This document shows, in pieces, positions 3,701 to 62,910 of a stretch of 64,000 bases of DNA. Under the pieces are notes generated by a model. The model searched no databases, was not told the origin of the DNA, and saw only the letters and a list, made by a program, of their open reading frames with translations. Source of the DNA: Perna viridis (taxonomy: Eukaryota). The stretch is from contig CM074516.1 of the NCBI GenBank assembly GCA_037379345.1, positions 47,467,626-47,531,625 of the forward strand, given 5' to 3'. Each line of letters begins with the position of its first letter. Within the stretch, counting starts at the first letter, position 1. A program made the translations under genes and the position numbers.

Positions 3701-4194
3701 ACTCGTCCGTTTAAATCACCGATAACGGCTATGTTTCCTAGGGCTGAATAATGTTCAATCTGTTCTTTTAAAGCGTCGAAAACGTCTATTTTGTATTTCG
3801 TATAATAAATGTTTTTGTCGGGAGGCATATAAATTGCACAAAAGTATAAATCTTTACCATCATACATTACATTTTGATCAATTCTAAACCATATCATGCA
3901 ATCAACACAGCAATTTTCGAATTTTAAATATGGATTTAACCATTTTTTATAGAATACAATAACACCACCTCCGTTGCACTTTTGTCTGGCCATGTATTTC
4001 TTTTCATAACCATCTATATCAAATTCTTTAGGACATTTAACCAAGCATTCATTAAAACATACTATATCATTATTGCGCAATATATCTATGAATTCCACAC
4101 TAGCGAGTTTTTTAACCAGGCCCTTCGAAATATTCCATGAACAAATTTTAATCTTTAAATTATAGATTTCACTTTGGTCACCCTCCGCAACTTC
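761..4194 (-). pseudogene. LINE ORF2 (APE endonuclease + reverse transcriptase), broken by two in-frame stops and a frameshift
   Basis: Track ORFs 2371..4098, 2071..2256 and 761..2071 are consecutive parts of one protein. Stops lie at 2371-2373 and ~2278, and a frameshift near 2075 precedes QGESLSP. Confidence 0.9.
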
Positions 4195-36730: not shown

Positions 36731-37603
36731 GTATGACAAGCCGTTGTGGAATTCATATTGATACTAAGGATGAGTGATTTCAATTGATATAAATTGATAT
36801 TTTGTTTAAAATCCCTTTGATCTTGCTATACGATAATTTTCAATCTCACGCCACACGAGTAGCACGTCGCTGAAAAATAGTCCCGAAAGGAAATTTGCAG
36901 CGCTTATAAAAATTACATATTTAGGTCAGGAAAACTTAAATATTTTTTTCAACTCGCGGGAGTTTCTCATGCCATGCATCTTGTCTCGCGACAAAGCCGC
37001 TCGACGAGATAAGAATAAGAAACTCCTTCTCGTTGAAAAAAAATATTAAATAATGTGGTAATCTTCATTTATTGATGTATCCGTGTGTGACATGTTTATT
37101 CCCACGTTAATGAATACTGTTGGTATCAAAAATGAATTATCAACACCTCAACATTTAGCCCCGTATTAACAATTAGTAATTGATCATTATAGTGGACGAT
37201 TTATTCAAACGTTAATAAGGTTTATTGACATATTGATAAATCATTTATTGGTTTCAATTATAAAACGAATTATTAATGTGTACAATAGGTGCTTAAATTG
37301 AATCTTTGTCGCAAAATTTATTTGCAAATGAAAATAAACTGGTAAATACGTTATTTTAAAATTTATTTTTAAATCATATATGCACATTTAATTAAATTAA
37401 ATGCCGTGCAAAGCAAGGCAAAAAGTATTATGGTGTGAAAATTGTGGTGAAAATTTTTTTCTTACCGATTTAAGGAGGCGTACGCCCGGTGTGCCAGTCC
37501 TTGGATCCGCGCCTGATGTTATAAAATATTTATAACACGTTAATTATCAAATATTTATCAAAATCAATAAATGGAGAATAAATTCCACAACGGCTTGCCA
37601 TAC
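36731..37603. mobile_element. MITE with 23-bp TIRs between NUS1 and EED
   Basis: GTATGACAAGCCGTTGTGGAATT ... AATTCCACAACGGCTTGCCATAC. A nested inverted pair lies at ~36940-37050. Confidence 0.75.
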
Positions 37604-37894
37604 ATGAATAACAAATTAAATTCTGGATGACAATTTCTTCTCCTCCTGTGGCGCCTGCTCATAAGCGAGGTTGGGGGAAACTCGCCTGGTGGAAACTGCT
37701 TATTGTCTTGGAGTTCTGTACCTAAATAATGCATGTACAACGTAGCTCCCCTTCGGCAGTATTATAAAACCTGAACACTCTCTTTCTATTAAGTATTTTT
37801 ATAGTGGATACTATAAAAAAAAAAAGAATTGCTAAAATGTTTCTACTGGTTATTTTTCTTTCTCTTTTTTTTCACTGGCATCCAAATAACATGA

Positions 37895-37956
<62 letters not shown>
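37895..37956. repeat. (AAT)n microsatellite, ~20 units
   Basis: Directly visible perfect run about 300 bp upstream of the EED ATG. Confidence 0.97.
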
Positions 37957-37958
<2 letters not shown>

Positions 37959-38253
37959 CACGCACAAAGAAAAAAACTGGAAGCATGGATTAGGTGCACC
38001 ATTGGGGTAAACATCCCATAAACACACGCTGTGTTGTTCATTAAATGTCAGGCCCGGAATATGACCCTGTTTCATGAGCCTAATTGTTAGAAGTCTAGAA
38101 CAGAAAAATGTCAGCGTAGTTTCGGCAAGCTTGATTGTGATGTAAAATTAAGAACGTTGTGTTCAATGTCACTTATAATATGGACTATGGTCATAAGCAT
38201 TTTCGTAAAATCACATGTTTACCACGTGATTGAACAAAGAAGGAAATTTAAAA

Positions 38254-41200
38254 ATGTCGGACAGTGAAGAAAGCATGTCAACAATGCCTGTTTTGCAAAA
38301 ACGACCCAAAATATCATTACCAACAAATGCAGATGGTTCAGGGGACGATCAAGTAATTCAATACACTTCTTTTAATCATCTCAAACTGAGAAATTGTTCA
38401 GTTATTCTGTCATGTTTTACGTGAAAGGAATCCGATATATTTGTTGCGTTCGGGGTTTTTATCTTAAACATAATAATAATAAAAAAAATAAATCATGATA
38501 TTAAGCCTGATTTCGGATCTCCTGTACTTGGCGATGACAATACTGGTATACCAGTATTGTGTATAATACTGGTATAAAAATTGTTCCAGTATTGTATACC
38601 AGTATTGTACCAGTATTGTGATTTAAAAAGATAAATATTTTACTTGTACATATATATCTATAGTATTGTAGTAATTGTAAGTATTGTCATGAGTATTTGT
38701 AAAAAATTAACTCAAGTACTGTTATGTAATTACTCATTTCTGCACAGTATTAACTTTTATTGATTTAGTAATGTTGACTTTGATATGGAAGACTGCAAAA
38801 ACTGTTGTATGATATTTATTTCGTACATGTTAGAAGAAAATTGAGCACTATTTTAATGAAAGCACAAATCAAAATATCATGATAAAATTACATATTAAGG
38901 TGGTAATACACAGCTACTGTCATTAGAATGAGTCTTAAATCGTCAATGGTCTTAGTCTTAAGTGGACTTTGTTCTTGTAGTAATTTGACTAGGTCTTCAT
39001 ATTCTTTCCAAGTAGGTCTTTTTCCCCAAGGACATGCAAACCTAAGCGATCGGTGGATGGACATCGCTGTACAAAATTTTGAAAAAACAAAATCACTATA
39101 CTGGAACAAGTTTTTATACCAGTATTGCGATCGCCAAGTACATGAGATCCCTGATTTCTCTTGAAAAATATTTCCCGACAGATCATGACAAAAAGAATTA
39201 TGTTAAGTTTCCTCCTTACCTTCAAAAAGAAAAAAAAGAAGAAAGAGTAACAGCACCAAAGGTTGAAAAGTAGACATTACATTGTTTTATTCTCACTGCT
39301 TTACATGGCTAGATTTCCTCAGGATAATGTTAAGCTGTTATTTTAAATGTTAATTTATGTTTATACGAGTTAAGTATTGATAATCAATGTTCAAATGAGC
39401 CATATTTGTGTTAATATAAATACATTGTTTTGGTTCTAATATGATTTTTAAGCTTTGTCCATGAAGGAAAGCTATTTGTAACTCTTTGTCTTTGTAAATG
39501 AAGCACTGCTATGCTGACCGACAGGGACTAACGAGACTTTCTTTGATACATGCTCATACCTGCAAACTGACACGATTTGATCGTTTTCATGATTATTACC
39601 GTTTGTCCCGCTGACATGATTTTTCATCTGAAATTTGTCCCAAAAACACAATTTTGTCAAAATATGGCTATATAAATTTTTGCTAAAATTAGCCAGCCCT
39701 GCCAAAAAATAGCCAGTCGCTGGCTGGCAGGCAGGCTACTATTTCTAACTCTGCAGTAAGCATAAAATATACAAAGCAAGATCTGTCATTCTCAATTATT
39801 TGTAAGATATTCCTCTTTCCTGACCTTAACATCCTACTCCCAGTCTTACTTCAGTTGACTAATTATTTTTTCATAACATGGGTTTGCCTTGGCATCATGT
39901 TACAATTAATTTGTCAGAAGTACTCTCAGATTAATGTATTCTTTGCAATAGGTCTAAAATTTGTAGAACCATGTATGTAAACAAATTATAAAATTGCAAT
40001 TGTTTGTACAAAATGAATTACCTCCCCTGCAATCTTCAATTCTTTTTTAGCTGATCTTGTAATTTCAACAGTGCAGTATCAATTTTTTGTATTTCCCAAA
40101 AGTTTTGTTTGCAATAGTGAAATAGCTACAATTCCATTTTAAATACTGATGATTTTGAAATTTGGTTGCATCATTCTTGAATATTTGTTACATTTCCTCA
40201 TATACTGAACCTATGGTATTCATATAATGAAAAGAATAATTTGCTCAAATGTCCATCTTTCATATTTAGTCTGTGTGAGACCTAATAGGGTTGTCAAGGA
40301 TGTTAAAAAACCCCTTAGTAGTTTTATATTTAGCAACATTTTGTCACATAGAGCAAGGCTTTGGTGTAGAGGCAAAAGAACTTGTTATGACTAAACCCCT
40401 CAAAGTTCAAAGCTGAAAGCTGAATCCACTTCAATTGACAGTAAAGGAAAGAAGGAAAGATGTGTTCAATGTATATTTTAAAAGAGTAGAAATACATTTG
40501 AATGTAAATATGAGTTTCTCATTTATACTTTTGAATTAAAACTTAAGAATTTCAATTAAGTTTGGAGGAATCCAAAAAAAAGATGGGCTTACAAACATAC
40601 GGTACATCAATCTATTACAGTGCATGCACATGTTGTTCAACTGAAAAAGGCCCTTTAATACTAAGTGATTGTCTCATTCATACATTACTACAGTGAAACC
40701 CATGCACTTTGCTAAAGATGTCCCAAAAAATGTTCGTTCACACATCCCGCCAACAAACCTCCACAGCAATTTTCAAAAGTTGGCAGGTATGCATGCTGTG
40801 TGTCTGCTTTAAAAGTTGAAACAATCTCTTCCTAAGGCCTAAAAAATATGGGTGTTTCCAGTTTCCTGACCAGCCCTTTTTTTTTTATGTCAACCCTTGC
40901 TTTTAAAGTTTATTTGGGGATGTGTGTCTAAGGGTGGGTACATTGATTTTAGCAATTCTTTTTCCAGGTCCAGATCAATTACATTATTTTAGCAAAACCT
41001 AAAAAAAATATTTTGAAAAATACAAACCCATGTAGACAATATTTTTAGGTCTGCAACATTTTAGATATTGGAAATAGAAATAAAATATCTGATGAAAAAA
41101 AAGAAAAAATATAATGTACCTATTTGAAATATCATTCCAGGTTAAGACTTATTTTTAACATTGTTAATACATGTCTATAAAAGCTGCAATGAGTAATAAA

Positions 41201-44200: not shown

Positions 44201-47200
44201 CTTCGTGGTGTCATTAGATTAATCAGTCCTGTTTCCATGCAGTGTATTAAGGTATGTCATTAACTGACTTATAACTTAATTTGTGTTTTAGCAATTCAAT
44301 ATTACTAAATTTTAATTTTGAGTTATGTTTCAATAAAATTTTTCAGATTATTGTACACTTATTATATATTTACGGTAGTTAATTATTTGTCATTCAGCAT
44401 TTTATATGGCATGGTTATGCTAGCAATAAGTTGATATACTTAATCATTTATCATTTCAGCATTGTGTATGCCATGGTTATGCTAGCAATGAGTTGATACA
44501 TGTTAACAATTTTTGATTTTAGCATTTTGTAGGCCATGGTAATGCCATCAATGAGTTGAAGTTTTATCCAAAGGATCCTAATCTGTTACTGTCTGTTTCT
44601 AAAGGTACATGTATTACTTTAGAGGAAGTTAACTGCTTTCTCTCTCTTGTGAAATTGTTCATTTTCTTTTTTTTAAACCAGCATCACAACTCTTGGAAAT
44701 GAATACTATTTTCAGGAGAGACAGTATTTCTCTGCTATTTGATGTTCCATGATTCACAGTTTGTTTCTAAGTATTTATCCCTTCATGGTAATTAATCTAA
44801 CTACATGTAGAACATTAAAAGATAACTAATGTACTTGAAGTACTAGGGTAAAAATGCCACACATGTGTGATGCATGTACCTTAAAACACATGTGAAACAG
44901 GTGTATCATATGCATAGTATACATGCATTTACATGTGTGTGCTATGTATGTGAAACACATGTGTCAGAAAACACATGTATCATGCATGTGTTTGGAATAC
45001 GCATGTGACACATGCGAAATGTACATGCATTACACGTGTTTAAAACTGCATATAACACGTGTTTTGAATCGATGAGGAAACCATATTCTTCCTCACAAAG
45101 CACTTACAACAGCTAATAATGAATAAAATTGAAACTAAAATGAAAGATTTAATACAAAGTCAATGTTGCACTTGAGAAAAATGATACATAATGAACCATC
45201 ATGGTAGTTGGATAAGGAGGGCATTTGAAAGTATAAAGTACATGTACCATAATTTTTACATGAAATAATTATGCATGTGTCACATGTGTATTCTTTCAAA
45301 CATGAAAAACTCATGTGAAATGCATGATTACTTATGTGATTCATGCGTATCACATGCATTTTTCACACATGTATCACATATGTGGCATGAAACGTCTCTT
45401 TCACATGCGTGTGACACGCATATAAAACACGTGTGGCATTTTTACCAGTGTAGTTATCATATGTGAATTTAGTTATTAAGTTACTGTTTGTTGGTGTAAG
45501 AGCTTGAATGTTATATTTGTATTTGACAGATCATACCCTGAGGTTATGGAATGTGAAGACAGATATTTGTGTGGTTAACTTTACTTTAATTACTGTGTAT
45601 TTGACAGATCATACCCTGGGGTTATGGAATGTGGAGGCAGATATTTGTGTGGTTAACTTTACTTTAATGTATTACTGTGTATTTGACAGATCATACCCTG
45701 AGGTTATGGAATGTGAAGACAGATATTTGTGTGGTTATATTTGGTGGAGTTGATGGACACAGGGATGAAGTACTTAGTGCTGTAAGATACCCCTGATTCT
45801 TTACCTGGTTGGACATTGTTGGCTTTATATTTGATGACATTGTTGGCTTTATATTTGTTGATATAATAAGTATTTTGACTGGTATGAAAAGTTAAATTTG
45901 GTAAATGATATTAAAAGGTTAGGGTAGCTACATTTACACATGTAAGTATAGTCATGAATGAAGATGAAAGTCATGATATGAAAAATAACCCTGTAATATT
46001 AAAACATCTTTACAATATATTCCCGAAATATTCATTCTCAAGTGGATAAAACTATATATTCAACGGTATCTTTTCTTTCCAGGATTTTAACATTAAAGGT
46101 AGCATTTTTGTGTCGTGTGGTATGGACCACTCTTTGAAGATGTGGAAGATGGACAAAGATGAGATTACAGCTGCCATAGATCTGTCCTACACTTACCATA
46201 GTGTCAAAACTAATAAGTAAGACTTCTATCTAAACTAGTGTATAGTTATTATTATACGTAAGTTGATGGAGGATATTAAGAAAATGTTTTAGATGTGTTT
46301 AAGTAGTGTACAATCACAAAGGTCTATGTCTGTCTGCCCGTTGTCGTCTGATGATAAGCACTACTCATCCAATTACAAATAATTTTGTGCTTTGTTGTTT
46401 TCATTGCATGTTGACTGACTGAGTAAATCAAGAAACAGGGGAGATAATTCACATATGGTGGATGTGTAGCATTCAAATTTGGAATGGTACAGCGAGAATG
46501 ACCCCTTGCCAGGTAGTTGTTGGGGCAATTGTAAAGTACCCTTTTTAAAAAAAAAATTGAAAAGAGTTTTAGGTACCGCATGCCATATCAACGATGATTT
46601 TTGGTATAGCAATAGCCATACCTGCCACACCAGGCACAATACCACAGCATGTTTGTATTATTGCTAAAAATGTGACATAGCTGTCATTATAATTCAAACT
46701 CTCGGTTTTTGAATTTGTATTAAAAATAAAGTATGAAATTTCTTGATATCCAAAAATTTCTAATATGACAAAAAAATGAATTTACACATAAGTTAATGGA
46801 TTTACAGGATGTTGAACAATGAATTCAAATATAACTGTCAGTTTCATTGTAAGAGCTAACTGTGAGCAAACTCACAATGAGAACACCCAAGTTTCATATG
46901 GAGTTAAATGTTAAATGTATATTCCTTCAACTGTATTATCTCCCTTAGGAGTCCTCCAACTGTAATTATATTCCTTCATGCACTTCTACATATGATACCG
47001 ACCTTCCTATAACATTTCATCAAAATCCGATAGCTGTTTAGCAAGAGTTGTACTTATGAGGCTTCAATATATTAAACCTTCAGCAGTAACTTTATTCCTT
47101 CATACACATCTACATATGATGCCCAACCTTCCTAAAGCTGTTTTAGCAATTAAAGAGGAGTTGTGCTTACAAGGTTTTAACATATAAAATGTTTATGCTG

Positions 47201-50200
47201 GATTAACACCCTTAGGAGTCATCTGACGGTAACTGTACTCCTTACTCCTTCATGCACATTTTCATTTGATGTCCAACCTTCCTGTAAAATTTCATCAAAA
47301 CCTCCTGAAGGTTTAGAAAGAGTTGTGCTTATAAGAAATGTGGACAGATAGAGGGGATGATTTCTATATACTGTCCAAACCCTGTTTTCAGGGGTTATAA
47401 TGATTATTATGGTACATATAAAAGTAATTTTTATTAGTGTTTTTAAAGGAATTCATTTATGAAGTAAAGCTTACAAACAATTTCTTGGGAATAAAAAGTG
47501 CATTAAAAACATTAATTCACTTCAACCCATTGAAATGGCTGGTACATTTATTTCTTAATTACTACTATCTAAAATTTATAAATTAAACCGAAGTTATTAA
47601 ATGTGTGATATTGCTAGTAAATGCTTATATTTGAGTTTACAACATTCTATTCCTTGCAATTATTTCAGACCTTTTCCAACAGTAAGCCAGAACTTCCCAG
47701 ACTTTGGTACAAGAGATGTCCATAGGAACTATGTAGACTGCGTACGATGGCTTGGCAACTTTGTTTTATCTAAGGTACATTATAGGAGGGGTGTTTACTT
47801 ATACAGATTTTCTACCAATTTTGACTGCAAATTATGCTCTATGGATTGTGAATATCTCCATAGTACCTTTGTTAAAATTTCAGGAAGTTCAGGATTTTAT
47901 GGATCATTTCCATAGAATACTGTAAAAAATATGGATTGTCATCAGGTAGTTAAAACAGATCTGTCATAGAAACATTTAGATGGCTTGGCAACTTACTGTA
48001 GTTTTAATAATTCTTTAGTGTGTTTTCATTACCCCTGTGATTTAATTGTTTATTGCAGTTAATCTTGGAGTCTAGTGGGAAAGTTGTAGCCAAAAGTAAT
48101 TGATTTTAAAGTTTATATTTCATCCAGTATTCACCAGTTTTAATAAATTTAGTTTATCATGTCCCCTTCTTTATTGGAGACAGGTCTGTGCTTCCAACAT
48201 CTTTTACCTTAATTATTTGATTGAAATGAAAACATTAATTTTAACAGGTAGATATTTAGTACGCAACTTTAGTTTGGGGTCCCATTTGTGGGATGGGATT
48301 TCTGTCATGTTTCTACTTCCTGTTTATTGCAAACCAACCATTTCTATCTTTGACCCATTCTATGATCTTGTTTTGTTATTTGTAGTCATGTGAGAATTCT
48401 ATAAACTGTTGGAAGCCTGGACCATTACATGATACACTGGATAATCTTAAGGCTAATGACAGTAAAGTGACAATTTTACATAGGTTTGACTACAAAGATT
48501 GTGATATCTGGTACATGAGATTCTGTCTGGATTTCTGGCAAAAGGTTGGTAACATACAGACTTAAGAAAACCTTTAAATGCCTGTATCTTGATGAGACAT
48601 TGTTATGTAGTACCTCTGTCTGTTCACATATACAATTAAGAAAAGATGATTTGAGGGATTTCATTAATGTTCTTTTCCCTGGAAAAAAGCTCTTTTTCAG
48701 TTTTCAGGATTGTTCTATTGTTTGAATTCAAAGTTTAATGATTGGGGTTAATATACATCAGGGCCAAGGATCCAGAAACGGTCAAAAATGTTATTGACCG
48801 ACTACCATTTTCCGATATTGGACATAAGAAATTGTCAACCCTTATAAATTACAGTCTGTGTAGTTTTATTAGTGTATAATATGCATCCTGTCTCCCTGTC
48901 TCCTAATTGTTTATTGAAAATTAATTGGCAAGTGTGCATCAATATTAGCTGATGTGGAGCCACCTGTGACTGAGTAGTTCATTACGTAATTATATTAACA
49001 GTACATGTGCAGCACCATTATGTATACCAGTTAATTGAAGTTACTCAGAGAATTTTCATATATTTATTACTTGATTTAATGAAGAAAAATATTGACAAGT
49101 CAATCATTTCCCTGCCGATCTTTCAGTGGTAACGAAAGCATATGGTGTTGTGAAACTACGAAACAGTCGTAGTTTGTAATTATTAATTTATCAATCAAAT
49201 CTTTTTATCACAGAAGTCAACAACCCATTTAATTCAGTATACAAAATGTATTTGCGATTTTCTTTCATAAATATTCAACATTTTTTTCATCACTGCACTG
49301 GGAAGTTTTCAACTGTTTGCCGATGTGATGAAAAGTCTGAGAGATATGATGTTTTGTTTACATGTTTGAGGACGTTCATGTGTGGTCAAAAGATGACTTG
49401 TTCACTCGTTCAGATATTTTGTAAAAGACAGTATGTGATGGAATAACAGAAATTCCAATATTTATCTTTAAATATCTACAAATTTTTTTTTTATTCTTGA
49501 TCTGAGCATTTAAAAGAGTGACACAAATGTCTGCTAGGTTTGATAAAATGACCGACATGGGCTGTCAAAATTTTTGGACCCTTGATCTGGACCAGAAATT
49601 TTGTTGAGGTTGGTTACCCATGGACTGAAGTCAATATTGAATGTGGAAACAAATGAAAAATTATACATTGCTTCAGGGGAATATGGGTATATTGTTTTAC
49701 CCTTATTCATCCAGCTGTCCATCTGTTTATCACACTTTTTTTTCTTAACCATTTTCTGAAACTACTTCACAGGTACTTACTGTTTGACACAAGCCTTATG
49801 TAGGTATGCCATATTGTGGAATTTAATGTCAGGCTTTAGCTGCATTTGAGCTATACAAACTTTCTTTTTAACAAGTCAGTTTATATTTTGTCTGTAAATG
49901 GCATATACTAAAGTGGGGTGGGAGGTATTACTGATGGGCATTAATTTCTTACTTTTTAAATTAATCACATGAATTGAGTTTAATATTACAGTTAGTTTTG
50001 ACAATGTTATTAAGAAATAACTTTTGTCTTAGGTAGTTGTCAATCACGATGTGATTTATTGTAACAATTCTTACATCTCTTTGCTTTGACACATGAGAGA
50101 TAACTGTGATTATACCCCCCCACAAACAAAGTTTAGGGGTATTTAGAAATCATCCTGTTTGTCTGACTTTCTGTCCACATTTCTTGTAAGCCCAACTCCT

Positions 50201-53200
50201 CCTAAACAGCTTGATGGATTTTGATAAAGTTTTATAGGAAGATTGGGCTCTATTCTGTATGTTGATGTGCATGATTGAATAAAACTACAGTAAAAGGACT
50301 CCAAATTAAGATAATCTGGTTTTTAATAAAAGGGTAAACATATTAAATCATCATAAGCTCTTCCTTGTTGAAATATTCAATGAAGAGAATTTGATGTTTC
50401 ATTGAGTGAATTTTATGGTGTGTTTGTTTGTTGTTTCAGTACATTTTTGACATTATATTTAAAGGGGATGGTTAAAGCCTTATAAAACTAGTTCAAATCC
50501 AGGGCAGATTTGATGTGCCTGTCCTCCATGAGATATTGGTCATTAATGTGTCTTTTTGTTGTTTTATAACTTTCTAATTTGATTTTGAAGTATTGTCATT
50601 CATCTGTAGAGAATACTGAATACTTGGAAAAGTCTTAAAATGCATATGAGCATTTAAAACTTATTTCAAAATCATTTAATTAGTGAACACTTTTTTTTTC
50701 GTATCCATCGGTTGAAACTAAAAAATTCGTTTGATTTCTAAAATAAAAGTGCTAGTAAACAATAGTCATCTAATTACTGACATACATATCAAACTGTAGT
50801 TTAAAAGAAGAAATTAAGCTTCAAATATGAAAACAAAAAAGGGTTAAAAATAGTCATAATCATAGTTAATCTTCGATTTTTGTCAATTATTTAAATGGTG
50901 TTCATCTTAAATAAAATAAACAATTTTAAAATTAATTTGCCTTTTTAACAATTTAAGAAAAGGCTGAAAAGTAATAATATCATGATATCAAAATATATTG
51001 TCATTGTATACAATTGATAATATCACAACTGGAAGTCCAGGTGTCATTTTCACAAAAAGTTGTAAGTTTTAAATTGATCGAAAGTTATGTTATAACGATG
51101 CTATTTTCTGTTATGATGTCATTACTTACGATCAACTTTACACTTACAACTTTTTGTGAAATTGATGCCTGAAGCCTAGTAGTCGTAAGAATATGTTATC
51201 TGTGTCAAATGATATTGCCCTGCAATTGTGAAGAAACTGAGAGTATTTGAAACATAAACAAAGAAAAAATTTACGCTGTTTAAAAAGGCTAGCAAACAAG
51301 GTTGAGCATCATCATCGTCTGTTGTTGTCGTCCGTAGTCATCGTCTGTCATCGTTGTCGTCGTTAACAATTTTACAAAATTATTCTTCTCTGAAACAACT
51401 TGAGTCAAATCACTTGACTAATTAAAATCAAACTTAGTAGGAATGTTCGTTGGAGTATTCTGCATAGAACTGAGGTGGGGATTTTTGATCTGTCAAAAAG
51501 CATGGCTGCCATTACTAAAAATAGAACATAGGGGGTCAGACAGTAGTTTTTCACATATATCTCCAAAACTGTTAGGTTTAGCTAATTTTGACAATATGTG
51601 AAAGTGTTCATCATGATGAGATCTATCTCTGGTCAAATTTTGGTTTTAATCCGTTAAGCTATAATTGAGTTATTGCCCTTTTTCAATGATTTTTGCTATT
51701 TTTTTAGTTATTTCTTTCAAAAATCTTCTCCTCTGACACTACTTGACCAATTGAAACCAAACTTGGTATGATTGTTCCTTGGGGTATCCTGCATAAAACT
51801 GTTGTTGGGATTTTCGATTGTTGAGAAACATGGCTGACATTACTAAAATTAGAACATAGGGCTCAGACAGTAGTTTTTCACATATATCTCCAAAACGGTT
51901 AGGTTTAGCTGGATTCTGATGTGAGTAAAAGTGTTCAGCATGATGAGATCTATCAAATTTTGGTTTTAAACCATTAAGTCATGTTGATTATATTGTCGTT
52001 TTTCAACGATTTTTGCTATTTTTAATGTTATTTCTTTCAAAAATCCTCTCCTCTGACATTATTTGATCTATTGGAACCAAACTTGGTATGAATATTTCTT
52101 GGTGTATCCTGCATAGAACTGATGTGGCGATTTTTGAACTGTCAAAAAACATGGCGGCTGTTACTAAAAATAGAACATGGGGGTCAGACAGTAGATTTTT
52201 GCATATATCTCCAAAACTGTTAGGATTAGCCAAATTCTGACAGGATAAAACTATTCAGCATGATGAGATCTATCTGTGGTCAAATTTTGGTTATTGCCCT
52301 TTTTGGATGTTTTTTGCTGTTTTTGATGTTATTACTTCCAAAAATCTTCTCAAAAACTACTTTACAGAATTCAATGAAAGTTGGTATTTTTGTTTTTTAG
52401 GGTATCCTTAACTAAATGACCATTTGCATTTTTGATCGGTTAAAAAACATGGCCACCGTTCCTAAAATAAGAACATATAGGTCAGACAGCAGATTTCTGC
52501 ATACATCTCCAAAACCGTTAGGTTTGGCCAATATTTTTCAATTGCTGAAAATTTGCTTATTATAAGGCCTACAAAAGTCTCCAAGGGATAGTTGTCAGAC
52601 GACTCAATGTAAGGGTTATACCCTTGAGAGATGAAAAATGACTTTTTTTCTTTTTTTTTTTTTTTTACAATTTTCAGCCTATATCTTGAAAACTATGATA
52701 GATAGAATGAAACTTTCAGTTGGTGAAATGATTCTTATTATAAGGCCTACAAAAGTATCTAGGGATCAAAGTTGTCAGATGACTCCATATAAGAGTTATT
52801 GCCCTTGAAAGGCAAAAAAAATTTGTTTTTTTTTTCAGTCGGTATCTTGAAAATTATAATAAATAGAATGAAACTTTCTATTGATGAAATGATCCGCATG
52901 ATAAGTCCTACCAAAGTCTTCATGGAGTCAAAATTGTCGGACAATTTCTTGTTAGAATCCTTGAAAAGCAGAAAATTAACAAGGTGAGCGATTCAGGCTT
53001 CTGGGAGCCTCTTGTTATTTTAATGAAATAAGATATATATCATGCTTGAAGACTTCCACTCCCGTTGGTAAGCAGGTTGCAAGAGTCATCTGGCAAACAG
53101 AAGTGGCATGTCTTGTAACTTTTATCATTTTTTTTTTATTCCATGCAAAATTTTTTTTTTTTTGGGGGGGGGGGAAACATAGGAATATTTTTCTTAAAAG

Positions 53201-56200
53201 CATAAATTTGAAATCCTGGAAAAGTAATATTTATTCCTGGAAATGTAATTCACCAAATATTTCTTTTTCATCTTCATGAATTTTTTAGATATTAACCACT
53301 ACTCATGATATATTTCCATGAAAAAAGATGGACATGGAAGATAGTTACTGCTGGTTAATAAGTTGCTATGTATCCCATGGCAAATATTTTATAGAATGTA
53401 AAAATTAACTTTGCTTAACCTAATAACACATTATTTATCTAAATTTATTTATATTTTTTATCAGCATTATTATTTGGTAAACTAAAATCAAGTCCTTTAA
53501 TTGCTCCCATACTTCATGTTGTGAATTTAAAAATAAGTGATAATAGTACTTTTATTGATAGCTATCAATTCTTTGGTGGTTGCTAAATTATTCTTTTACT
53601 GAGTTTCAATTCCCTGGTACCAATATGCAATCTTATCTTAATTTCTAATGAAAAAATCATTTTTATGAAATTTTAAATTTATTGTTTACTTAAAAATAAA
53701 AAAATAGAGATTCCACGTCTATTGAATTTTAGCTATAATTGACAGTTTTTATTTCACTCAACATTTTTTAAGGGCTTTTAATCAATTAAGAATCCAATGC
53801 TGATTTGAAGAATGTATTCAATGGTTACTTGCCCCTTGACTATAAATGAAATATCTATGGCTGGGTATTACTTATTTTTAGTATGAAGGTAAAAAAAAAA
53901 GGTATATTCTATCCTAAATCAAAAAGTTTATTCTCTAAACATGTTATAATTTTCCCTTAGTTAGATTAATTAACCTTTATCTGTCTTAATGAATTCAATC
54001 TCACATTTGTTGATAATTTTATCTTACATGGATTATGATTGTCTGTTAATTATGTTTATCTCTGAATTATAATTAACTGAGATATTGTCGCTTAATATGA
54101 ATATTAATGAGATGGAGGTTCTATGAAGGATGATCTTAGTGAGGAAATAATATTCACCAGAAAGATATTTGTTAAGTTTTATTCTGAATATATTTTTTTA
54201 AACTTCAGAGGATCTCCCTTTACAAGCTTTTTTGCATCAGTATTCCCAAGTATACCATGTAATGTGATTTGAGTGATAATTTGGAGGTGTGTTGACTTAT
54301 GTATCCACCCTGCCCACACAGATTGTTACATGTTGGTTGATACTAGATAAGTTTCTATAAAGGGTAATTGTACCAGACTGCTAGACTGACGGAAATATAA
54401 AATAAGGAAACATGGTTAAGATGATGATAACGTAATGATAGCCAGAGTATGTACCTCTAATACATAAATTTTAATACAAATAGACTAGTTGTTACAATGG
54501 ATGGAGTACTTAAGTTTGGATATATATGTTTTTTATTAAGTTTGACTTGTCTTTTTATTCCATCATTTAGTATACCTTGTATATCAGAACCATCATGTGA
54601 TTGTGTTAACAATGAGAGAACTGTTCATTGTGAAAGTAAGATGGGGGTTGGAAAGTTACAGAACTTTCATCCAGATGTTGTATCATTGACGATTAGAAAT
54701 AGTTTTCTTGGTCCGATGTTGAACACATCATTTTCCTCCTTCATGATGGAAGTAGAGGAGATAATACTCACTCACTGTAGAATACATACAATTACTGATG
54801 TAGTGTTCAGATATTTACGGAACTTGAGGAAGTTAGTGCTAACAGATAATTATTTGAGGATTTTAAATTTTGATGTTTTTTCTCATTTGACTTCATTGGA
54901 GGAATTGGACTTGAGCCATAACAGATTTTCTGTTTTGCCAGACGGGGCATTTCGAACATTGACTAATTTACGATATTTTAATATCAGCTATAACAACTTG
55001 ACTGATATCAAACTTGGCCTACGATTTCAAGTTATGGAACAGATGCAAGTTTTAGACTTCAGCGGCAACAGTTTCCAGAATATTCCATCAGATGCTTTTG
55101 AAATGTCATCAAGCTGGAGGTCGACTGTACCAAAGGTCATGAATCTCTCTTACTGTGGAATAAAGTTTATTAATGAATCAGCATTTCAGAATCCACAAGG
55201 AATAGAAATGTTGGATTTAAGTGGTAATTTTGATATTTCCTACACTAATCTGACCTACTTCTTTAACTCTAGTGATTCTCCCAACATTAAGTATTTGGAT
55301 TTATCTAGCATTGGGCTTACCAATGTCACTGAACTATTTAGTACATTCAGAAGAAGGAATATCAAAGAACTTTTATTGTCCAACAATAACATAACTGAAG
55401 TACCACCAGAATTATCAGAAAACTCTGCTGGAACATTGACAAAACTGGACTTAAGTAAAAATAAATTGACTTCTATTTCACAACCTCTCTCTGAACTCAA
55501 AAGTTTATTGTATCTTGATCTTTCAAACAATCGGATATCAGATGTTGATCCCAAATTTGATGCAAATCTGGTAAACCTAGACCATTTAGACCTTTCATAT
55601 AATGAAATAGGTGATGGGAAAATTACTCTGCAGAACTTTGAAAATATTAAATGGTTAGACTTCAGTCACAATAAGTTGGTATCATTCAGTCTTCCAGATT
55701 CTCTTCAGAACTTACAGTTTGTGAATCTGTCTTACAATTCTATTGCCAGTTTAGATACTCTGAATGCATTACACAAGTTGGAAACTTTTTTGTTTGAAAA
55801 CAATGAACTAATCGAGCTTAATGAATTTTTATTTGTGGATTCGCCTAATATCAATTCTGTGAATTTTAAAGGTAATAAGATTAAAACCCTTGCTGACTCG
55901 ACCTTTGAACCTTATTCTCCAAAGTACATTGACCTTTCTTTTAATAAACTTGAAACAATAAGGTTTCCAGGATGGAAGAATGTCAAGTCTATATCTCTGA
56001 GAGGAAATGGAATGAACAGTTTGAACAAAGCTACATTTTATGCCTTATTTCAGCTGGTGTTTTTAGATTTAGCTGAAAACAATCTGATTTTCTTGGAGGA
56101 TAAATTGTTTCTCTATTTTACCAACTTAACTACTCTACACTTAGAACACAACCAACTATACAGGTCTGATAATTGGGATGAATTATTTCAAAATTTGATT

Positions 56201-59200
56201 CTACTGAAGAAAATGGATCTTAGTTTTAATAACATCTCCAAATTTTATTCAAGTGATTTTGTTAAAAGTGAATTATTAGAGGAATTATGTGTTAGCCACA
56301 ACAGAATTCATCATGTTGAGCCATCTGGATTACGAAAGCTAACAAATATTAAGAATTTAGATTTTTCAGTCAATCCCTTTGTATGTAATTGCTACGCAAG
56401 AGACTTTCGTGATTGGCTTTGTTCTTCTGGTGTTAAAATGTCATACAGCAAAGAAAACTATACTTGTCTGTCTCCGGAGGAACAACATGGTAAAGATTTC
56501 TGTGAGTTTAAATTGGGACATTTTGAATGTGATTTTCTCTATCTATATATGGTGGTCTATTCAATTGTAGGAGCCATTTTTCTGATAGTTATCATTACCA
56601 CTGCATTTGTATGTCATTTTCATTTAAAATGGAGACGCAATCAGCTTATTGTGAAAAGTCGACCTTCAATTGACTTTGAAAGCATGGAACATTCACCATT
56701 TATACCAGATGATACTTTGGATAAAAAGTCAAAGCAATCAAAGAAAAAAGATAATGAAAAAATAAAGGCAATATCTAATCATAAGGTTGGAAGTAAAAAT
56801 AAGAAAAAGAAGTCCAAAATGATGGATGAAGTATATACAATGAACATGATGAATGGGTATGGAAACTTTATGAACGGTGATATAAAGGAAGTCTCTAATG
56901 CAAAGAAGACAAAGAAATCACCTAAAAGCAAAGCAGTGAAGAAAGGTGAAAAAAAGCGAAGACACTCAGACTCAGGCTATGTGTTTAAACACAGGAATGA
57001 ATTGATAGTTCAGAAACCTAGGAGAAAGACAAACTCTGAACTTGAAACAAACCCATATGTCCAACAGTTTCTATGGCAACAACATAAAAAGCACATGAAA
57101 AACTTAGTCAACAAGCAATTAAATCGTGAATCATTCCGTAATGTTGATGTTATTCGTCCCAAACCTATTCTCAGCAGTAGATCTGAAAGTGTACCAGATG
57201 TCAAGTATTACACTATTAACAGGATGCCTAGATCAAATACTGCTGGTTATAGACTCAATGAGTACTACCCTGACATGGGCACTTGGCATGGATCACGTAG
57301 TCGACAAAACATAGGCTTTAAAGACCAATATAAAATGTCAGGATATAACACAATAGGTGGTACTCTGAAATCTCATGCACAGTATATTTGAAAGCATTTA
57401 CTCATGTACATCATTATCAATATTAAACAAGTGTGTAACTAATTAGTTCTGTATAACTTTTTGTGCCGTGTTGATACCTGGTTTTATTCATTTCCTCATT
57501 TTAAAATGATTTTTTTTAAGTGATCATATATCTCCACTGTATTGTGTTTTGCCTTGTCCATCTGTCTGTATGTCTGGTTGTCTCTCCTCAAAAACTGCTG
57601 CTCTGAATTTCATGAAGTAGTGTAGGTAGTTAGGACATGATATGTAGTTGTCTGTGTTACCATGAATTTATATTCCATATAATTTTCTGATAGTTCTACC
57701 CATTTTTGACTTTGGAATGGGGAAAGCCTATTTTTTATGGGCAAAAACGAACTTAAATGTAATGGTGTTTTTACTAAAAGATTTTTTGAAATGAATCAAT
57801 TGTTTCTTTCTACTTTAAAGGTAAATGATATGAAAGGTTTTTGTTATTATTCAGGTGTACTTTGGTTTCATTTTAGCAACAAAAAAATCCTCTTGTAATT
57901 TTCTTCTCTTCATTTTAATGCCCTTGCTATACCCCCTGTAAACAAGGGTGGAGTAAAGGAATCACCAAGCCTAGCTGTATGTGTAGGTCTTGTCTTTTTG
58001 TACATCTGCACTTTAACTTATTTATCAGAATTCACTACATTTTGTGAACAATTGAATGGGTTCTGATGACTCTTTGAATCATGATTGTTGGGTATCAAAT
58101 GCATATGTGAAGAAAGTACACTACTAGTGTTGACAAAGATATTAAACATTGTGTATGATGAAGTAGAAGCACTGGAGTATTAGTATTAGGGAAAAAAATA
58201 ATGTCTGTTTCTTGCTACCAACTATCCTATTTTTTTGCCCCTACCCTTAATATTTTATGTCCATTTTGCCATTTAAGCACTTATAAAGTCTAAATTGTTG
58301 ACTCATTAACTCAATGTAATTGAAAAATAAAATAATTTTCCATACCTACCTACCATATTTTTTGCTGGTAGCAGGAAACAAGACTATTATTATTTTTGGC
58401 TTTACAGTTAATGAGTTATACTACTGTTAGCAGTATGTTATCCCATACAGAGTGCAAGAATACAGAGTTAATTTTTTTCCTACCAAAGGAAATACCATCA
58501 GAACTTGAATTAGTTTTAATGGTACGTCATACAAACAATACATTTAAAGTGAAAAAGTTGACTGGAATCTTCATGGATAAAAACCACATAAATGAGAAGA
58601 CAATTGCTATAAATTATATTGAGATGGAGGTGGCTTTCCACAACTGACTAAATAAAATCATTCTGAAGAATTTAAGTAAAATTAGGAAGTGAAATGTGAA
58701 CTTAAATAGTAATCCCTTCCTTGGTGTAGAAATGAAATCTACTTCCCTTCTGGATGAAATTGAAATCTTTTTTGTTCATTTATTATAACATATTTCTAAA
58801 AAATTGAGGTACAATATACAAAGGAAATTGATAGAAGAAATATTGATTTACTACATGGACATTTTGTTGGCACTCAGATCTATAGTATGTAGGTTAACTG
58901 TATGAGTGTATTATTAAAACAGAAAACAGAGAAAAAAAACATAATATAAAAAAAAAAAAAAAAAAAACACTATGAAAACTAAGACGATATGGGAAGTGGA
59001 AGCATGAATCTATTACATCAGTATGGTAAGCATCATCTGTTCTCTAGATACATCCACCATGGTGCTTCTTTCATGTTACAACCACTACTATTTTGTCAAA
59101 GTATTGTCACTGCAAGTTCATCTTCTACTTTAATATTACTAAAACAAGAGGTTCTGGAGACCCTGATTGGCTCACCTAGCCCAGAGGATCATGTGAGCTG

Positions 59201-61869
59201 TTGCCACCACTTGGTGTCCATTGTTGTGGGTGTTGCCCTTGTCTTTGTCTGTGAACTTTTCTCTAGACATCTTTTTCTCTGAAACTTCCTGACATGTTTT
59301 AATGAAAGTTAGCTTGAACATTTCTTAGGAGTTTAAATTTTTTATGTAAAAACATTACCATTATATCTATTTATAGAAGATAAAGGTAAAGCCATTTAAT
59401 TCAAAGGTATATCTCAATAGCTACATGGAATAGAAAAAAAATGAAGAAACTTTACTTCTTTGGGTTGATGAGCTCTTACTGACTAAAAGTCTTCATTTGG
59501 TTGAAGTTGTAGGAGAAATCCTTGTTAGAGTTATTTCCCTTTAAAGGCAAAAAATGAAGTTTTTTTTCAGTTTTAAACTAATATCTTGAAAATCATAATA
59601 GATAAAAAAAACTTTCCACTGATGAAATGATCTTAAAGATAAAACCTTCAAAAAGACACCCTAAGGTGGAAATTGCAGGATGACTCATCAGAGTTATTAT
59701 GATCATTTTTGCTGTTTTAAGTCAATATTGTGAAGTCCTTAATATATAGAAAAAAAAATTTACATTAATGATTTGATCTTTATGATACAGCCTACAAAAG
59801 TCTGTGTTATCAAACACAACCCCTTGTTAGAGTAATTGCACTTGAAAGGCAAACAAGGAAATTTTTTTTTTCAGTTTTCAACCAATTTCTTGAACTGTAA
59901 TAGATAGAAAAAACTTTAAATTGATGAAATGATCCTTATGATAAGACCTACAAAAGTCTTCATTAAGTTGCAGCTTTAGGATGACTCCTTGTTGGAGTTA
60001 TTGTCCTTGAAAGGGCAAAAAAAATCACCAGGTGGTTGATTCAGGCTCTTGGAAGTTTCAAGGGAACTAAATTTAATAAGAAATCACCACACAACTTGAA
60101 CACTTGGGGACTTGCTAGGCCTTGTTGTGAGAATCATTAATTGAAAGTTCATTTATATTTATTGAAATTTGTCATGTTTGTCTTTCAGTGGCATAGGAGT
60201 TGTCACACAACCTAGACACTACAAGGACTTTGTAGGCTTTGTCATAAGGATTATTTCAACAATTTATAGTTTTTAGCTCACCTGGCATGGAATAGACAGT
60301 CAGACAGTAGTTTTTCACTTATATCTCCAAAACCGTTAGGTTTAGCTAAATTCTGATACTGTGTAAAAGTGTTCAGCATGATGAGATCTATCTCTGTTCA
60401 AATTTTGGTTTTAATCCATTTAGCCATGTTGAAGTTATTGCCCTTTTTCAACGATTTTTGCTGTTTTTAATGTTATTTCTTTCTAAAATCTTCTCCTCTG
60501 ACACTACTTGATGAATTGAAACCACACTTGGTATGAATGTTTCTCTGGGTATCCTGCATAGAACTGTTGTGGGGATTTTTGATTCATCGAAAAATATGGC
60601 CATCGTTGCTAAAAATAGGACATAGGGGTCAGACAGTAGTTTTTCGCATATATCTCCAAAACACTTAGGTTTAGCAAAATACTTTCAATAGCTTAAATGA
60701 TCCTTATTATTAGGACTACAAAAGTATTCAAGGATAAAAGTTGTAAGAGTTATTGCCCTAGAAAGGGGAAAAATGACTTTTTTTTTAGTTTTTTAGTCAA
60801 TATCTTGAAAACTATGATAGAATAAAAGAAACTTTTAATTGTTGAAATGATCCTTATGATAAGTCTTACCAAATACTTCTTGAGTAAAAATTCTTGTTAA
60901 ATTTATTGCCTTTGAAAGGTAAAAATTCAACCAGGTGAGCAATTCAGGCTCCTGGGAGCCTCTTGTCTTTCATCTATTACAGTTTTTAAGTTACAAGCTA
61001 AAACACAAAAAAAATAGCCCTTAGTCACCAACCAAGGGCAATAATTCTAAAATAAAGAGTCATCAAACAAATTCAACACTATGAGGACTTTTCAGATATA
61101 CAAAATGCACTACAAATTTTTTTAATTTCTTAGTATCAAATCGTACTATATTTTTCAAGGCTAATATAAGTATTCAAAATATACATTGAACCTACAGCAC
61201 CTTTTCAAGGATTATTATGTTTTGATCAATTTTTCATGCCATGGCACTTAGGAATCAAGGGGGGAAGATTTATATTTTACATTTATTTTTCAGTCCATGT
61301 CACTCAGAAATATTGTGAGGTAGATTTATATTGACTTTTATTTTTCAGTCCATGGCATTTGGGAATATAGTGTAATAGATTTATATTTGCCTTCTATTTT
61401 TCAGTCCATGGCACTTGGGAATCAAGTGGGGAAGATTTATGTTTGGGATATAGATATTGATGACCCCAGGGAAGCAAGGTTAGTAATTACTTGTTTATAT
61501 CTAGTGTATAACATGCATTTAAAATTGATTTACATGTAAATCAACTAGAGCAATATTACTATAGTTCATAATTTTTTAAAAAATCTCTCTAGCTGTGGAT
61601 ATGCATCGAAGATTTCACATAATAGTTTTTGACAATATCCCAAAATGTTGCAAGTTAACCTTGTGAACACCCCTTTAATATACTAGCATTTGTTTTATGT
61701 AGGTATATACACACACCAGAAATGTTATTCTATTTTATAAAGGTATATAGTAATCACCCACCAGAAATGTTATTCAGCAATCAGACAAACTGCTTTCACT
61801 AAAGATGGTAACACATTACTGGCTGTAACTGATGATGCTTGTATCTGGAGATGGGACAGACTCAAATAA
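38254..61869 (+). CDS. EED: Polycomb protein EED/esc (PRC2 WD40 subunit), 428 aa, 12 exons
   Basis: Exons 38254-38352, 42445-42576, 42803-42895, 43362-43427, 44129-44251, 44523-44604, 45690-45781, 46083-46216, 47669-47774, 48386-48544, 61405-61478, 61743-61869 (1287 nt). Motifs: [109 protein letters not shown]. Confidence 0.96.
41205..41905. mobile_element. MITE-like element with subterminal GATCCGTCC / GGGGACGGATC repeats
   Basis: Repeated GATC(C/T)GTCC at 41226-41300 and inverted GGGGACGGATCAAC at 41823-41900. Confidence 0.6.
42008..42220. repeat. ~36-38-bp minisatellite in EED intron 1
   Basis: Repeated (CAGA)TCCTCATACACATGTG..CCCATTTAAA, about 6 copies. Confidence 0.8.
43428..44128 (+). 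other. U12-type (minor spliceosome) GT-AG intron, EED intron 4
   Basis: 5' site GTATCCTTT. Branch-point-like TTCCTGAAC at 44111-44119 lies just upstream of the AG at 44127-44128, with no polypyrimidine tract. The frame joins as YVDPS|TEENFY. Confidence 0.9.
44383..44560 (+). repeat. Three tandem ~62-bp copies of the EED exon 6 acceptor + exon start
   Basis: AG at 44396-97, 44458-59 and 44521-22, each followed by CATT..T..(G/C)CATGGT.ATGC...CAAT.AGTTGA. Confidence 0.9.
44841..45453. mobile_element. MITE with CACATG-rich arms in EED intron 6
   Basis: GGTAAAAATGCCACAC ... GTGTGGCATTTTTACC terminal inverted repeats, with many CACATG/CATGTG motifs in the arms. Confidence 0.8.
45515..45737 (+). 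repeat. Three tandem 78-82-bp copies of the EED exon 7 acceptor + exon start
   Basis: TGTATTTGACAG|ATCATACCCTG.GGTTATGGAATGTG.AG.CAGATATTTGTGTGGTTA, with AG at 45528-29, 45606-07 and 45688-89. Confidence 0.95.
46848..47401 (+). mobile_element. HINE-like element with degenerate internal tandem units
   Basis: Repeated CCTTCATGCAC..TACATATGAT.CC.ACCTTCCT units, ending GGACAGA..AAACCCTGTTTTCAGGGGTTATAAT (terminal hairpin). Confidence 0.6.
51038..51171. mobile_element. Short palindromic MITE
   Basis: CAGGTGTCATTTTCACAAAAAGTTGTAAG ... CTTACAACTTTTTGTGAAATTGATGCCTG. Confidence 0.75.
51290..53015 (-). mobile_element. Helentron/HINE-like element (family A) with tandem arrays, upstream of the nested LRR gene
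   Basis: Ends GGTGAGCGATTCAGGCTTCTGGGAGCCTCTTGTT (reverse complement of the 26179 start). Contains ~320-bp repeated units (AAAATAGAACATAGGGGTCAGACAGTAG) and a (GTC) microsatellite at 51310-51365. Confidence 0.8.
54497..57391 (+). CDS. Single-ORF LRR type-I transmembrane protein (Toll/TLR-like ectodomain, no TIR), 964 aa, nested in EED intron 10
   Basis: Signal peptide, LRR-NT ([13 protein letters not shown]), ~20 LxxLxLxxN repeats, LRR-CT (NPFVCNC..WL..YTCLSP..C), a TM helix ([22 protein letters not shown]) and a ~250-aa basic, Tyr-containing tail. Confidence 0.93.
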   Translation: MDGVLKFGYICFLLSLTCLFIPSFSIPCISEPSCDCVNNERTVHCESKMGVGKLQNFHPDVVSLTIRNSFLGPMLNTSFSSFMMEVEEIILTHCRIHTITDVVFRYLRNLRKLVLTDNYLRILNFDVFSHLTSLEELDLSHNRFSVLPDGAFRTLTNLRYFNISYNNLTDIKLGLRFQVMEQMQVLDFSGNSFQNIPSDAFEMSSSWRSTVPKVMNLSYCGIKFINESAFQNPQGIEMLDLSGNFDISYTNLTYFFNSSDSPNIKYLDLSSIGLTNVTELFSTFRRRNIKELLLSNNNITEVPPELSENSAGTLTKLDLSKNKLTSISQPLSELKSLLYLDLSNNRISDVDPKFDANLVNLDHLDLSYNEIGDGKITLQNFENIKWLDFSHNKLVSFSLPDSLQNLQFVNLSYNSIASLDTLNALHKLETFLFENNELIELNEFLFVDSPNINSVNFKGNKIKTLADSTFEPYSPKYIDLSFNKLETIRFPGWKNVKSISLRGNGMNSLNKATFYALFQLVFLDLAENNLIFLEDKLFLYFTNLTTLHLEHNQLYRSDNWDELFQNLILLKKMDLSFNNISKFYSSDFVKSELLEELCVSHNRIHHVEPSGLRKLTNIKNLDFSVNPFVCNCYARDFRDWLCSSGVKMSYSKENYTCLSPEEQHGKDFCEFKLGHFECDFLYLYMVVYSIVGAIFLIVIITTAFVCHFHLKWRRNQLIVKSRPSIDFESMEHSPFIPDDTLDKKSKQSKKKDNEKIKAISNHKVGSKNKKKKSKMMDEVYTMNMMNGYGNFMNGDIKEVSNAKKTKKSPKSKAVKKGEKKRRHSDSGYVFKHRNELIVQKPRRKTNSELETNPYVQQFLWQQHKKHMKNLVNKQLNRESFRNVDVIRPKPILSSRSESVPDVKYYTINRMPRSNTAGYRLNEYYPDMGTWHGSRSRQNIGFKDQYKMSGYNTIGGTLKSHAQYI
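58185..58402. mobile_element. Small MITE
   Basis: AAAAAATAATGTCTGTTTCTTGCTACC ... GGTAGCAGGAAACAAGACTATTATT inverted ends. Confidence 0.6.
59142..60966 (-). mobile_element. Cluster of family-A Helentron/HINE-like copies downstream of the nested LRR gene
   Basis: An older copy spans ~59170-60055. A younger copy spans 60272-60966 (TTAGCTCACCTGG ... GGTGAGCAATTCAGGCTCCTGGGAGCCTCTTGT), with the same internal units as 51290-53015. Confidence 0.78.
61225..61445 (+). repeat. Four tandem 55-56-bp copies of the EED exon 11 acceptor + exon start
   Basis: TTTTCA(G/T) ..CCATG.CA.T..G.AAT.....AGATTTAT units. The first copy has CAT at 61235-37; the others have AG at 61292-93, 61347-48 and 61403-04. Confidence 0.92.
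61692..61775 (+). repeat. Two copies (40-bp spacing) of the EED exon 12 acceptor + exon start
   Basis: TTTTATGTAG|GTATATACACACACCAGAAATGTTATTC followed by TTTTATAAAG|GTATATAGTAATCACCCACCAGAAATGTTATTC. Confidence 0.85.
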
Positions 61870-62271
61870 TCTACAGCTCTAATATTATCTTAATAATGGA
61901 AGTGAAAATTTGTCTCTTGTTACACGATGTTTAACATGTCCGGATATGACAGGGTGATGTTACAAAGTATATTCTACTGTGGTCTTAAAGTTGATATTCA
62001 TAGTGGATAAAGGTTAATTGTGTTTTAGTGTAATACATACCCAGTATACCGGAATAGGAAAAAAGTGACAAGGGAGTTTATATGTGTTCATTGTTAAATG
62101 ATATGTTACTTGAACAATTATTGTGAATTCTAGTATTTTTGTGTCTATACAATTGATAGAAAAAAACAGTATCAATATATTAGTAAATTTCATTGAATAA
62201 ATTACTATTGAAGATACAATAATAAATGATATTTTAAAACTATGTACTATTTATTTTGTATGTGTAGTTGA

Positions 62272-62910
62272 AAAAAATTAAAGAACCTTAGTGAGCATGC
62301 TTACATACCCCACACGTCCCCATGTTGGATACTCAAGTAAATTTCAAACTCCAGACTGTGATTTCTTCGAGTTTTAATTAATCCAAAGTAAATATCATTG
62401 TTGCAGAACAAAACGTACATTTTACCTGTAACTTATCATGGTGAACTTATATACCAAAAATCATGTCATAATCTGCAAGCGTTTAGAAAAAAAAAGTCTG
62501 AAAAATTGTTATTTCTGTGCATTTAGCTAAGTTCAAGGCCCGTAATTTCAGTAAAAATCATCAGATTTGAGGCAAACACAAATTTGTCCTGTAACTTATC
62601 ATGGTGAATTTACATACCAAAAATCATGTCAATTTCTGCAAGCGTTTTGAAAAAAAAGTCTCGAAAACTGTTATTTCTGTGAATTTTGCTAAGTTCAAGG
62701 ACCGTAATTTCTGTAAAAATTATTGGAGCAGAACAAAAGTTAAACTTGACCTGTAACTTATCATGGTTAACTTACATACCAAAAATCATGCCAGTTTAGG
62801 CAAGTGTTTCAAACATTCCGGAAAACTGAAGATGGACTGAGAGATGGACGGACGGACTGAGGGGTCAAAAACGTTATACCCTCTGCAACTTCAATGCATG
62901 GGGTATAATA
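62272..62910 (+). mobile_element. HINE-like element with ~162-bp satellite units
   Basis: CCTGTAACTTATCATGGT at ~62425, 62588 and 62750, then a GACG microsatellite and a terminal hairpin TTATACCC..TGCA..TGCA..GGGGTATAA. Confidence 0.75.

Follow-up and report, generated by a model that had tools for sequence, protein, structure and literature searches.

An intronless LRR receptor gene nested on the same strand within EED intron 10 of Perna viridis, and its likely early origin in bivalves

Background

Nested genes for compact LRR membrane proteins, lying in large introns of their hosts, are exemplified by the LRRTM genes in the alpha-catenin genes and the FLRT genes in the MACROD genes; several of these proteins have PDZ-binding ends, and the nested genes are mostly antisense to their hosts. 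The gene described here, by contrast, has the orientation of its host, and no orthology to LRRTM or FLRT is shown for it.

According to one passage of PMC3814207, 71% of the nested protein-coding genes of flies are antisense and 72.5% of the same-strand ones have a single exon. In mammals overall the antisense bias is slight, in the part of PMC11694760 that deals with orientation. The premise of the initial annotation of this DNA, that antisense is the more frequent orientation of nested genes, thus stands for flies and only weakly for mammals. Like the same-strand nested genes surveyed in PMC2330155 and in the relevant passages of PMC3814207, the receptor gene lies whole within one long intron, has an intronless ORF and is expressed at a low level; being single-exon, it fits the fly pattern. 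Its host, unlike theirs, is a core Polycomb gene. Moreover, the surveyed pairs are mostly species-specific, whereas the receptor-EED arrangement is likely about 480-513 My old: a passage of PMC5010914 places fossils of both the Mya and the Mytilus groups at about 480 My, and one estimate, quoted from a passage of PMC5854119, puts the split of the two lineages at about 513 My.

At the H13/Mcts2 locus (PMC13309782), too, a gene lies within an intron of its host and on the host's strand, and poly(A) hexamers are available in the intron upstream of it; there nested transcription drives intronic polyadenylation of the host. The mussel locus differs from it in having no CpG-island promoter, no known imprinting and no truncated host transcript among the RNA seen. 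As to the protein, TLR3, TLR7 and TLR8 and the TIR-less RP105/CD180 share with the receptor a horseshoe ectodomain of about 24 LRRs, an LRRCT and one membrane helix; the receptor differs from them by a disordered tail of 250 aa that ends in a conserved motif and, from the TLRs, by the lack of a TIR domain. The identity to these proteins is only 19-23%, which is typical of any long LRR protein.

The host gene and its tenth intron

The window analysed is a stretch of 64,000 nucleotides of Perna viridis DNA (assembly GCA_037379345.1, contig CM074516.1, 47,467,626 to 47,531,625, forward strand), and all positions are counted from its first letter. EED occupies 38254-61869 on the plus strand in 12 exons, all with GT-AG ends, and encodes an open 428-aa product. 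All 11 matches of Mytilus edulis EED within the 723-Mb genome fall at this one locus; EED is single and intact. Intron 10 measures 12,860 nt, compared with 226-4,092 nt for the other ten. The features are as follows.

38254..38352, plus strand: coding part of EED exon 1, ATG at 38254 (gene model, genome matches)
42445-42576, 42803-42895, 43362-43427 and 44129-44251, plus strand: EED exons 2-5 (open 428-aa translation, GT-AG ends)
44523-44604, 45690-45781, 46083-46216 and 47669-47774, plus strand: EED exons 6-9 (open 428-aa translation, GT-AG ends)
48386..48544, plus strand: EED exon 10, ending in phase 0 (gene model; present on a spliced RNA contig of run X1)
48545..61404, plus strand: EED intron 10, the host intron (gene model; X1 RNA contig 1)
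51412..53017, no strand assigned: interspersed repeat in tandem units of about 320 nt, upstream of the receptor
54194..54208, plus strand: acceptor proposed in the initial annotation, at chance level and with no read support
54497..57391, plus strand: intronless receptor ORF, predicted 964-aa LRR type-I membrane protein
57392..58185, plus strand: likely receptor 3' UTR, free of repeat matches, ATTAAA at 57422 and 58141 (X1 contigs, few sense reads)
59485..60966, no strand assigned: another block of this interspersed repeat, on the downstream side of the receptor
61229..61445, plus strand: tandem array of 3.9 copies, 55-56 nt each, that repeat the exon-11 acceptor together with the start of the exon
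61405..61478, plus strand: EED exon 11 (gene model, genome matches)
61743..62208, plus strand: EED exon 12 with its stop at 61869, then 3' UTR to the limit of the RNA contig

The flank 5' of EED exon 1 is rich in CpG (observed/expected 0.73-1.54 over 35500-38499) and is likely, from its composition, to be the EED promoter. The same 3 kb could hold a shared or second promoter; no minus-strand gene was identified there.

Four of the 11 EED acceptors are preceded by tandem copies of acceptor plus exon start. In addition to the array at exon 11, there are 2.9 copies of 63 nt at 44379-44559 and 2.8 copies of 78 nt at 45518-45737, and a partial copy of about 40 nt is seen by eye before exon 12 (61690-61760). 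These copies are candidate decoy splice sites as judged from their letters: the decoy exon-11 acceptors at 61294 and 61349 score 9.3 and 11.2 bits, and both lead to stops.

The two repeat blocks that flank the receptor have the same orientation, are separated by about 8 kb and share 71-87% of their letters. A further copy of the family lies at 26178-26862 on the minus strand, and the family is abundant in RNA reads coming from other copies. Just upstream of the first block, 51038-51171 is a 134-nt self-inverted, palindromic element (77%) of MITE-like appearance. Elsewhere the window holds a LINE-type retroelement (761-5154, minus strand), in which an ORF1-like frame is accompanied by an ORF2 in pieces (RVT_1, E 3.6e-15), an arylesterase/paraoxonase-like exon (13612-13851, plus strand, E 9.8e-11) and a Pao/BEL retrotransposon fragment (21525-21734, plus strand).

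The receptor and its family

The gene model and the ORF confirm what the initial annotation had described, a 2.9-kb LRR-TM reading frame between EED exons 10 and 11 in the orientation of the host. The whole receptor coding region, uninterrupted, lies inside one intron of an intact gene, and its DNA matches a single place in the genome. A pseudogene or retrocopy debris was considered and is ruled out by the open ORF and the conserved orthologues; the identity to the Mytilus orthologues is 54%, far beyond chance.

The predicted protein begins with a hydrophobic stretch, likely a signal peptide, followed by a Cys cap. The ectodomain comprises 24 LRR strands (aa 63-622) and an LRRCT with C630, C632, C657 and C678; one membrane helix starts at about aa 680, and a disordered basic tail of about 250 aa ends in YI. 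The LRR horseshoe, LRRCT and single membrane helix of a Toll-like receptor are present. The structure model has an overall pLDDT of 75.9, with 511 residues at 90 or above and most of the tail below 50. Foldseek matches it to TLR8, TLR7, TLR3, TLR4 and RP105 at 19-23% identity, with target-normalised TM-scores of 0.68 for TLR3 and 0.63 for RP105. A TIR family domain was found in none of the 27 family members scanned, and the modelled receptor is therefore TLR-like in shape but not a TLR. The best PDB sequence matches are generic LRR proteins (E about 1e-32), an Atlas cluster search returned generic LRR clusters only, and LRRC32, in a sequence search rather than a tree, matches at about 1e-25, no better than other LRR proteins.

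A profile of the part running from the LRRCT through the membrane helix to the tail was used to search for relatives. It retrieved orthologues from scallop, Mercenaria, Dreissena, limpets, Gigantopelta, Babylonia, pulmonates and Lingula. In a quick tree of 41 rows, the 29 orthologue rows group apart from the 12 weaker LRR matches with support 100. Within the family, support is 100 for mytilids, 99 for pteriomorphs, 100 for heteroconchs and 99 for gastropods, bivalves come together at 86, and the Perna viridis protein groups with Mytilus. By its sequence, then, the receptor belongs to an orthologous family of molluscs and brachiopods with a Toll-like ectodomain, no TIR and a conserved C-terminus. 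The last two residues are [W/Y][V/L/I] in 26 of the 29 family rows and in 3 of 112 other LRR matches; neither count includes 12 further rows that are partial or only probably of the family, and at least 9 of the 11 of these that are listed end in the same way. We take this end to be PDZ-binding, and it is a candidate ligand. On this view the protein would act at the cell surface, without enzymatic activity, as a receptor or adhesion molecule: the LRR horseshoe would bind a ligand, and the end of the tail would attach to a PDZ scaffold in place of signalling via a TIR.

The orthologue is entered as a protein of its own at NCBI in three Mytilus species. One clam orthologue (L003) has a GT-AG intron within the cytoplasmic tail, at about 3253-3470, showing that the family is not always intronless; the public protein of this gene (P0053) runs into that intron and is hence truncated. 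A metagenome scan with P0003 gave 41 pattern hits, none of them confirmed. Two clam metagenome contigs that carry the orthologue, found with a 5-row clam alignment, showed no EED exon in flanks of up to 1.6 kb and no shared non-coding sequence.

RNA from the locus

Four of the 24 RNA runs listed were placed on 45400-62300: X1, which consists of assembled contigs, and X9-X11, three raw stranded runs of one study for which no tissue is given. Small shares of the receptor's sequence words also occur in runs X2-X5, among the other 20. Contig 1 of X1 (1,622 nt) contains EED exons 8, 9, 10 and 12, and between the last two it has 73 nt of its own sequence, which is the size of exon 11. It is the canonical EED mRNA, spliced from exon 10 on to exon 11 and skipping the receptor. 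In X9-X11, the exon 8-9 junction 46216>47669 is covered by 5, 15 and 7 reads (27 together), and the summed depth on exon 10 is about 17.

Sense RNA on the receptor is present at a low level. X1 has receptor contigs at 54864-55042, 56793-56983, 56964-57431 and 57682-57888, with depths of 3.3-5 as against 7.7 for EED. The intron bins 50476-51039 and 53296-54423 have no contig, a pattern suggestive of a receptor mRNA at low level. In the raw runs, about 6 reads on the 3' part of the receptor compare with 1-4 reads per intron bin, no excess over background, and these may be EED pre-mRNA. No read marks the 5' end of the receptor in the four runs placed, where its RNA is scarce.

CpG is depleted over the receptor and the 1.5 kb upstream (observed/expected 0.10-0.46; 0.10-0.26 over 53000-54499). 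By base composition this region resembles the EED gene body, unlike the EED promoter, and has no CpG-island promoter. The three TATA-like words at 53000-54500, out of 10 in intron 10, are no evidence of a promoter. At the other end, one X1 contig stops at 57431, 4 nt past the ATTAAA hexamer at 57422. RNA at 57682-57888, which has no repeat matches, lies 260-466 nt beyond this hexamer, which is therefore not clearly the end; repeats begin at about 58185.

Age of the nesting

Two public EED proteins bear on the arrangement outside Perna. The 1,450-aa 'EED' of Mytilus edulis (CAG2205391.1) follows EED to the end of exon 10, then a piece of LINE, then the receptor orthologue; in the 1,001-aa 'EED-like' model of Mya arenaria, the EED part ends at the exon 10/11 junction and is followed by the orthologue (32% over 713 aa). 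Neither has exon 11-12 sequence. We take both chimeras to be prediction errors that record the position of the receptor, on the same strand after exon 10. An assembly artefact as the source of the nesting is ruled out by the same order in the M. edulis model.

EED and the receptor are on one sequence in both comparable bivalves (M. edulis and Mya), and on different sequences in all four non-bivalves compared. The sequences bearing EED and the receptor measure, respectively, 120.6 and 91.7 Mb in Gigantopelta, 56.2 and 36.5 Mb in Babylonia, 55.0 and 95.7 Mb in Patella vulgata, and 189 and 408 kb in Lingula; identity of the two was judged from equal sizes, which assumes one assembly per species. 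For eight other named species with an orthologue, no EED row occurred among the 120 of 323 listed. Since the genes are linked in the two bivalves and on different sequences in three gastropods and Lingula, it was likely in an early bivalve that the receptor gene moved into EED, and same-strand nesting has likely been kept across bivalves for some 500 million years.

EED gene models break after exon 10 in unrelated animals too. Two fish models (P0023, Bagarius; P0237, Acipenser) also leave EED there, for a different gene: exon 10 is joined to a gene of Pfam family PF05603 and exons 11-12 are skipped. This gene is presumably Hikeshi, EED's neighbour. The fish chimeras reflect either an error that gene predictors make repeatedly or true read-through from this donor. 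EED models of Solemya and of a beetle and a Logan model stop at the same junction. That of the protobranch Solemya velum (P0216) ends 10 residues past exon 10, as if a long intron 10 had confused the predictor, a weak hint that the nesting reaches the base of bivalves. Because other models break here as well, the Mya gene may adjoin EED, and could lie just downstream of it rather than inside.

Coupled or independent

The initial annotation had proposed that EED transcripts might join exon 10 to the acceptor before 54209 and use the poly(A) site after the receptor, which would truncate EED and put the receptor ORF on the same mRNA, so that PRC2 output and receptor expression would compete or be coupled. 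As considered here, the model also allows another upstream acceptor, and this mRNA would be the only one for the receptor. The elements named are all there: the AG at 54207-54208, closing the candidate acceptor TTTTTTAAACTTCAG 288 nt before the receptor ATG; a read-through frame of 17 residues and a stop, which makes a 379-codon ORF in total; and the hexamer at 57422, shortly before the end of an X1 contig. Moreover, no separate receptor promoter is visible, and such an mRNA, having no downstream junction, would escape decay. The acceptor described as good is nevertheless at chance level: with a crude matrix trained on the 11 acceptors of EED itself (7.8-14.9 bits, inflated by the training), it scores 4.4 bits, below the exon-11 decoys, and ranks 57 of the 673 AGs of intron 10, and it is one of 31 sites there that pass a simple pyrimidine-tract rule. 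The ATTAAA is mildly notable at most, intron 10 holding 23 poly(A) hexamers (15 AATAAA and 8 ATTAAA) and A[A/T]TAAA being expected within 50 nt of a given point in about 9% of cases; RNA beyond it also speaks against its use. As to the junction 48544>54209 suggested as a check, sense depth is 0 in the bin of the acceptor (53860-54423) in all three raw runs, in which the receptor is barely expressed. By the rule of three, from depth, use of 54209 in X9-X11 is below about 11-17%. No EED junction into the receptor occurs among the 15 of 121 junctions listed, the receptor again being barely expressed, and junction reads into intron 10 or poly(A) ends of an alternative last EED exon were not found, at low power. 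Trans-splicing onto this acceptor was considered and dropped; it has no read support, and no paper on mollusc spliced leaders was found by title or start of abstract. On the shared mRNA, the receptor ORF would come second, after the stop of the EED frame and another eight ATGs, and a scanning ribosome would rarely translate an ORF so placed; the truncation would also remove the last 66 residues of the WD40 propeller, leaving a likely dead protein. With EED spliced from exon 10 to exon 11, we consider this proposal improbable.

Coupling could also arise if the receptor had its own promoter and its transcription regularly ended EED early in intron 10, in the manner of Mcts2 and H13, leaving less full-length EED in the cells that express the receptor, and the nesting were retained for that reason. 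The geometry is similar, eight poly(A) hexamers lie in intron 10 upstream of the receptor ORF, and the likely age is long for this class, 22 of 75 parallel nested pairs surviving from human to mouse (PMC2330155, Table 2). On the other hand, intron 10 shows no spot outside repeats where many RNA molecules end, there is no CpG-island promoter at the receptor, most mammalian nested pairs show no expression relation (in the part of PMC11694760 that treats expression), and a gene that is needed may be retained for long just because it is hard to excise. This reading is rather unlikely. The broader idea that cis wiring has kept an orphan receptor in place for some 500 million years, such that EED is cut short whenever the receptor is activated, be it by a start of its own or as an alternative last exon, and one cell type trades Polycomb repression for a surface receptor, is also unlikely, if slightly less so. 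The least probable of the alternatives restricts the nesting to mussels (Mytilidae) and regards the Mya chimera as a neighbouring gene or a prediction quirk with no deeper history. Gene models do break at this EED junction in unrelated animals, and no non-mytilid DNA spanning both genes was found among the sequences searched; the Mya partner is nonetheless an orthologue, in a heteroconch clade with support 100, on the same strand and sequence as EED, whereas the gastropod and Lingula orthologues are on other sequences than EED, and even if the two genes were adjacent in Mya and nested in mussels, their linkage would have to be old.

We therefore consider it probable that the receptor gene is independent and narrowly expressed, that it came into EED intron 10 in an early bivalve, and that it has been tolerated as EED splices over an intronless ORF. 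The insertion would predate the split of Pteriomorphia and Heteroconchia. Transcription of the receptor would be weak and begin at a start site of its own within 48545-54496, and persistence would follow from an intronless ORF that gives EED few splice traps and from narrow expression. The receptor and EED likely work independently; if EED is affected at all, this would be through local transcriptional interference, confined to the few receptor-expressing cells.

Implications

The new elements are the membership of the receptor family and the nested locus, a case of an old same-strand nested gene, probably an unusually old one. No paper on this locus or on the receptor family was found in the literature searched, with subscription journals and supplements outside its scope. 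The nested receptor explains two faulty public 'EED' protein models, those of M. edulis and M. arenaria. It also draws attention to an uncharacterised, conserved lophotrochozoan family of LRR receptors, whose members are now labelled chaoptin-, slit-, artichoke- or IGFALS-like. In practice, guides or deletions targeting introns of EED in bivalves can hit a second gene, and recombination between the flanking direct repeats could delete the receptor. Should coupling prove true, the locus would represent a new way of lowering PRC2 in one cell type. The insertion is likely datable and marks bivalves off from gastropods and brachiopods. It has also left a same-strand nesting that has lasted long although the host is an essential chromatin gene, and this class of nesting is found by surveys to be selected against.
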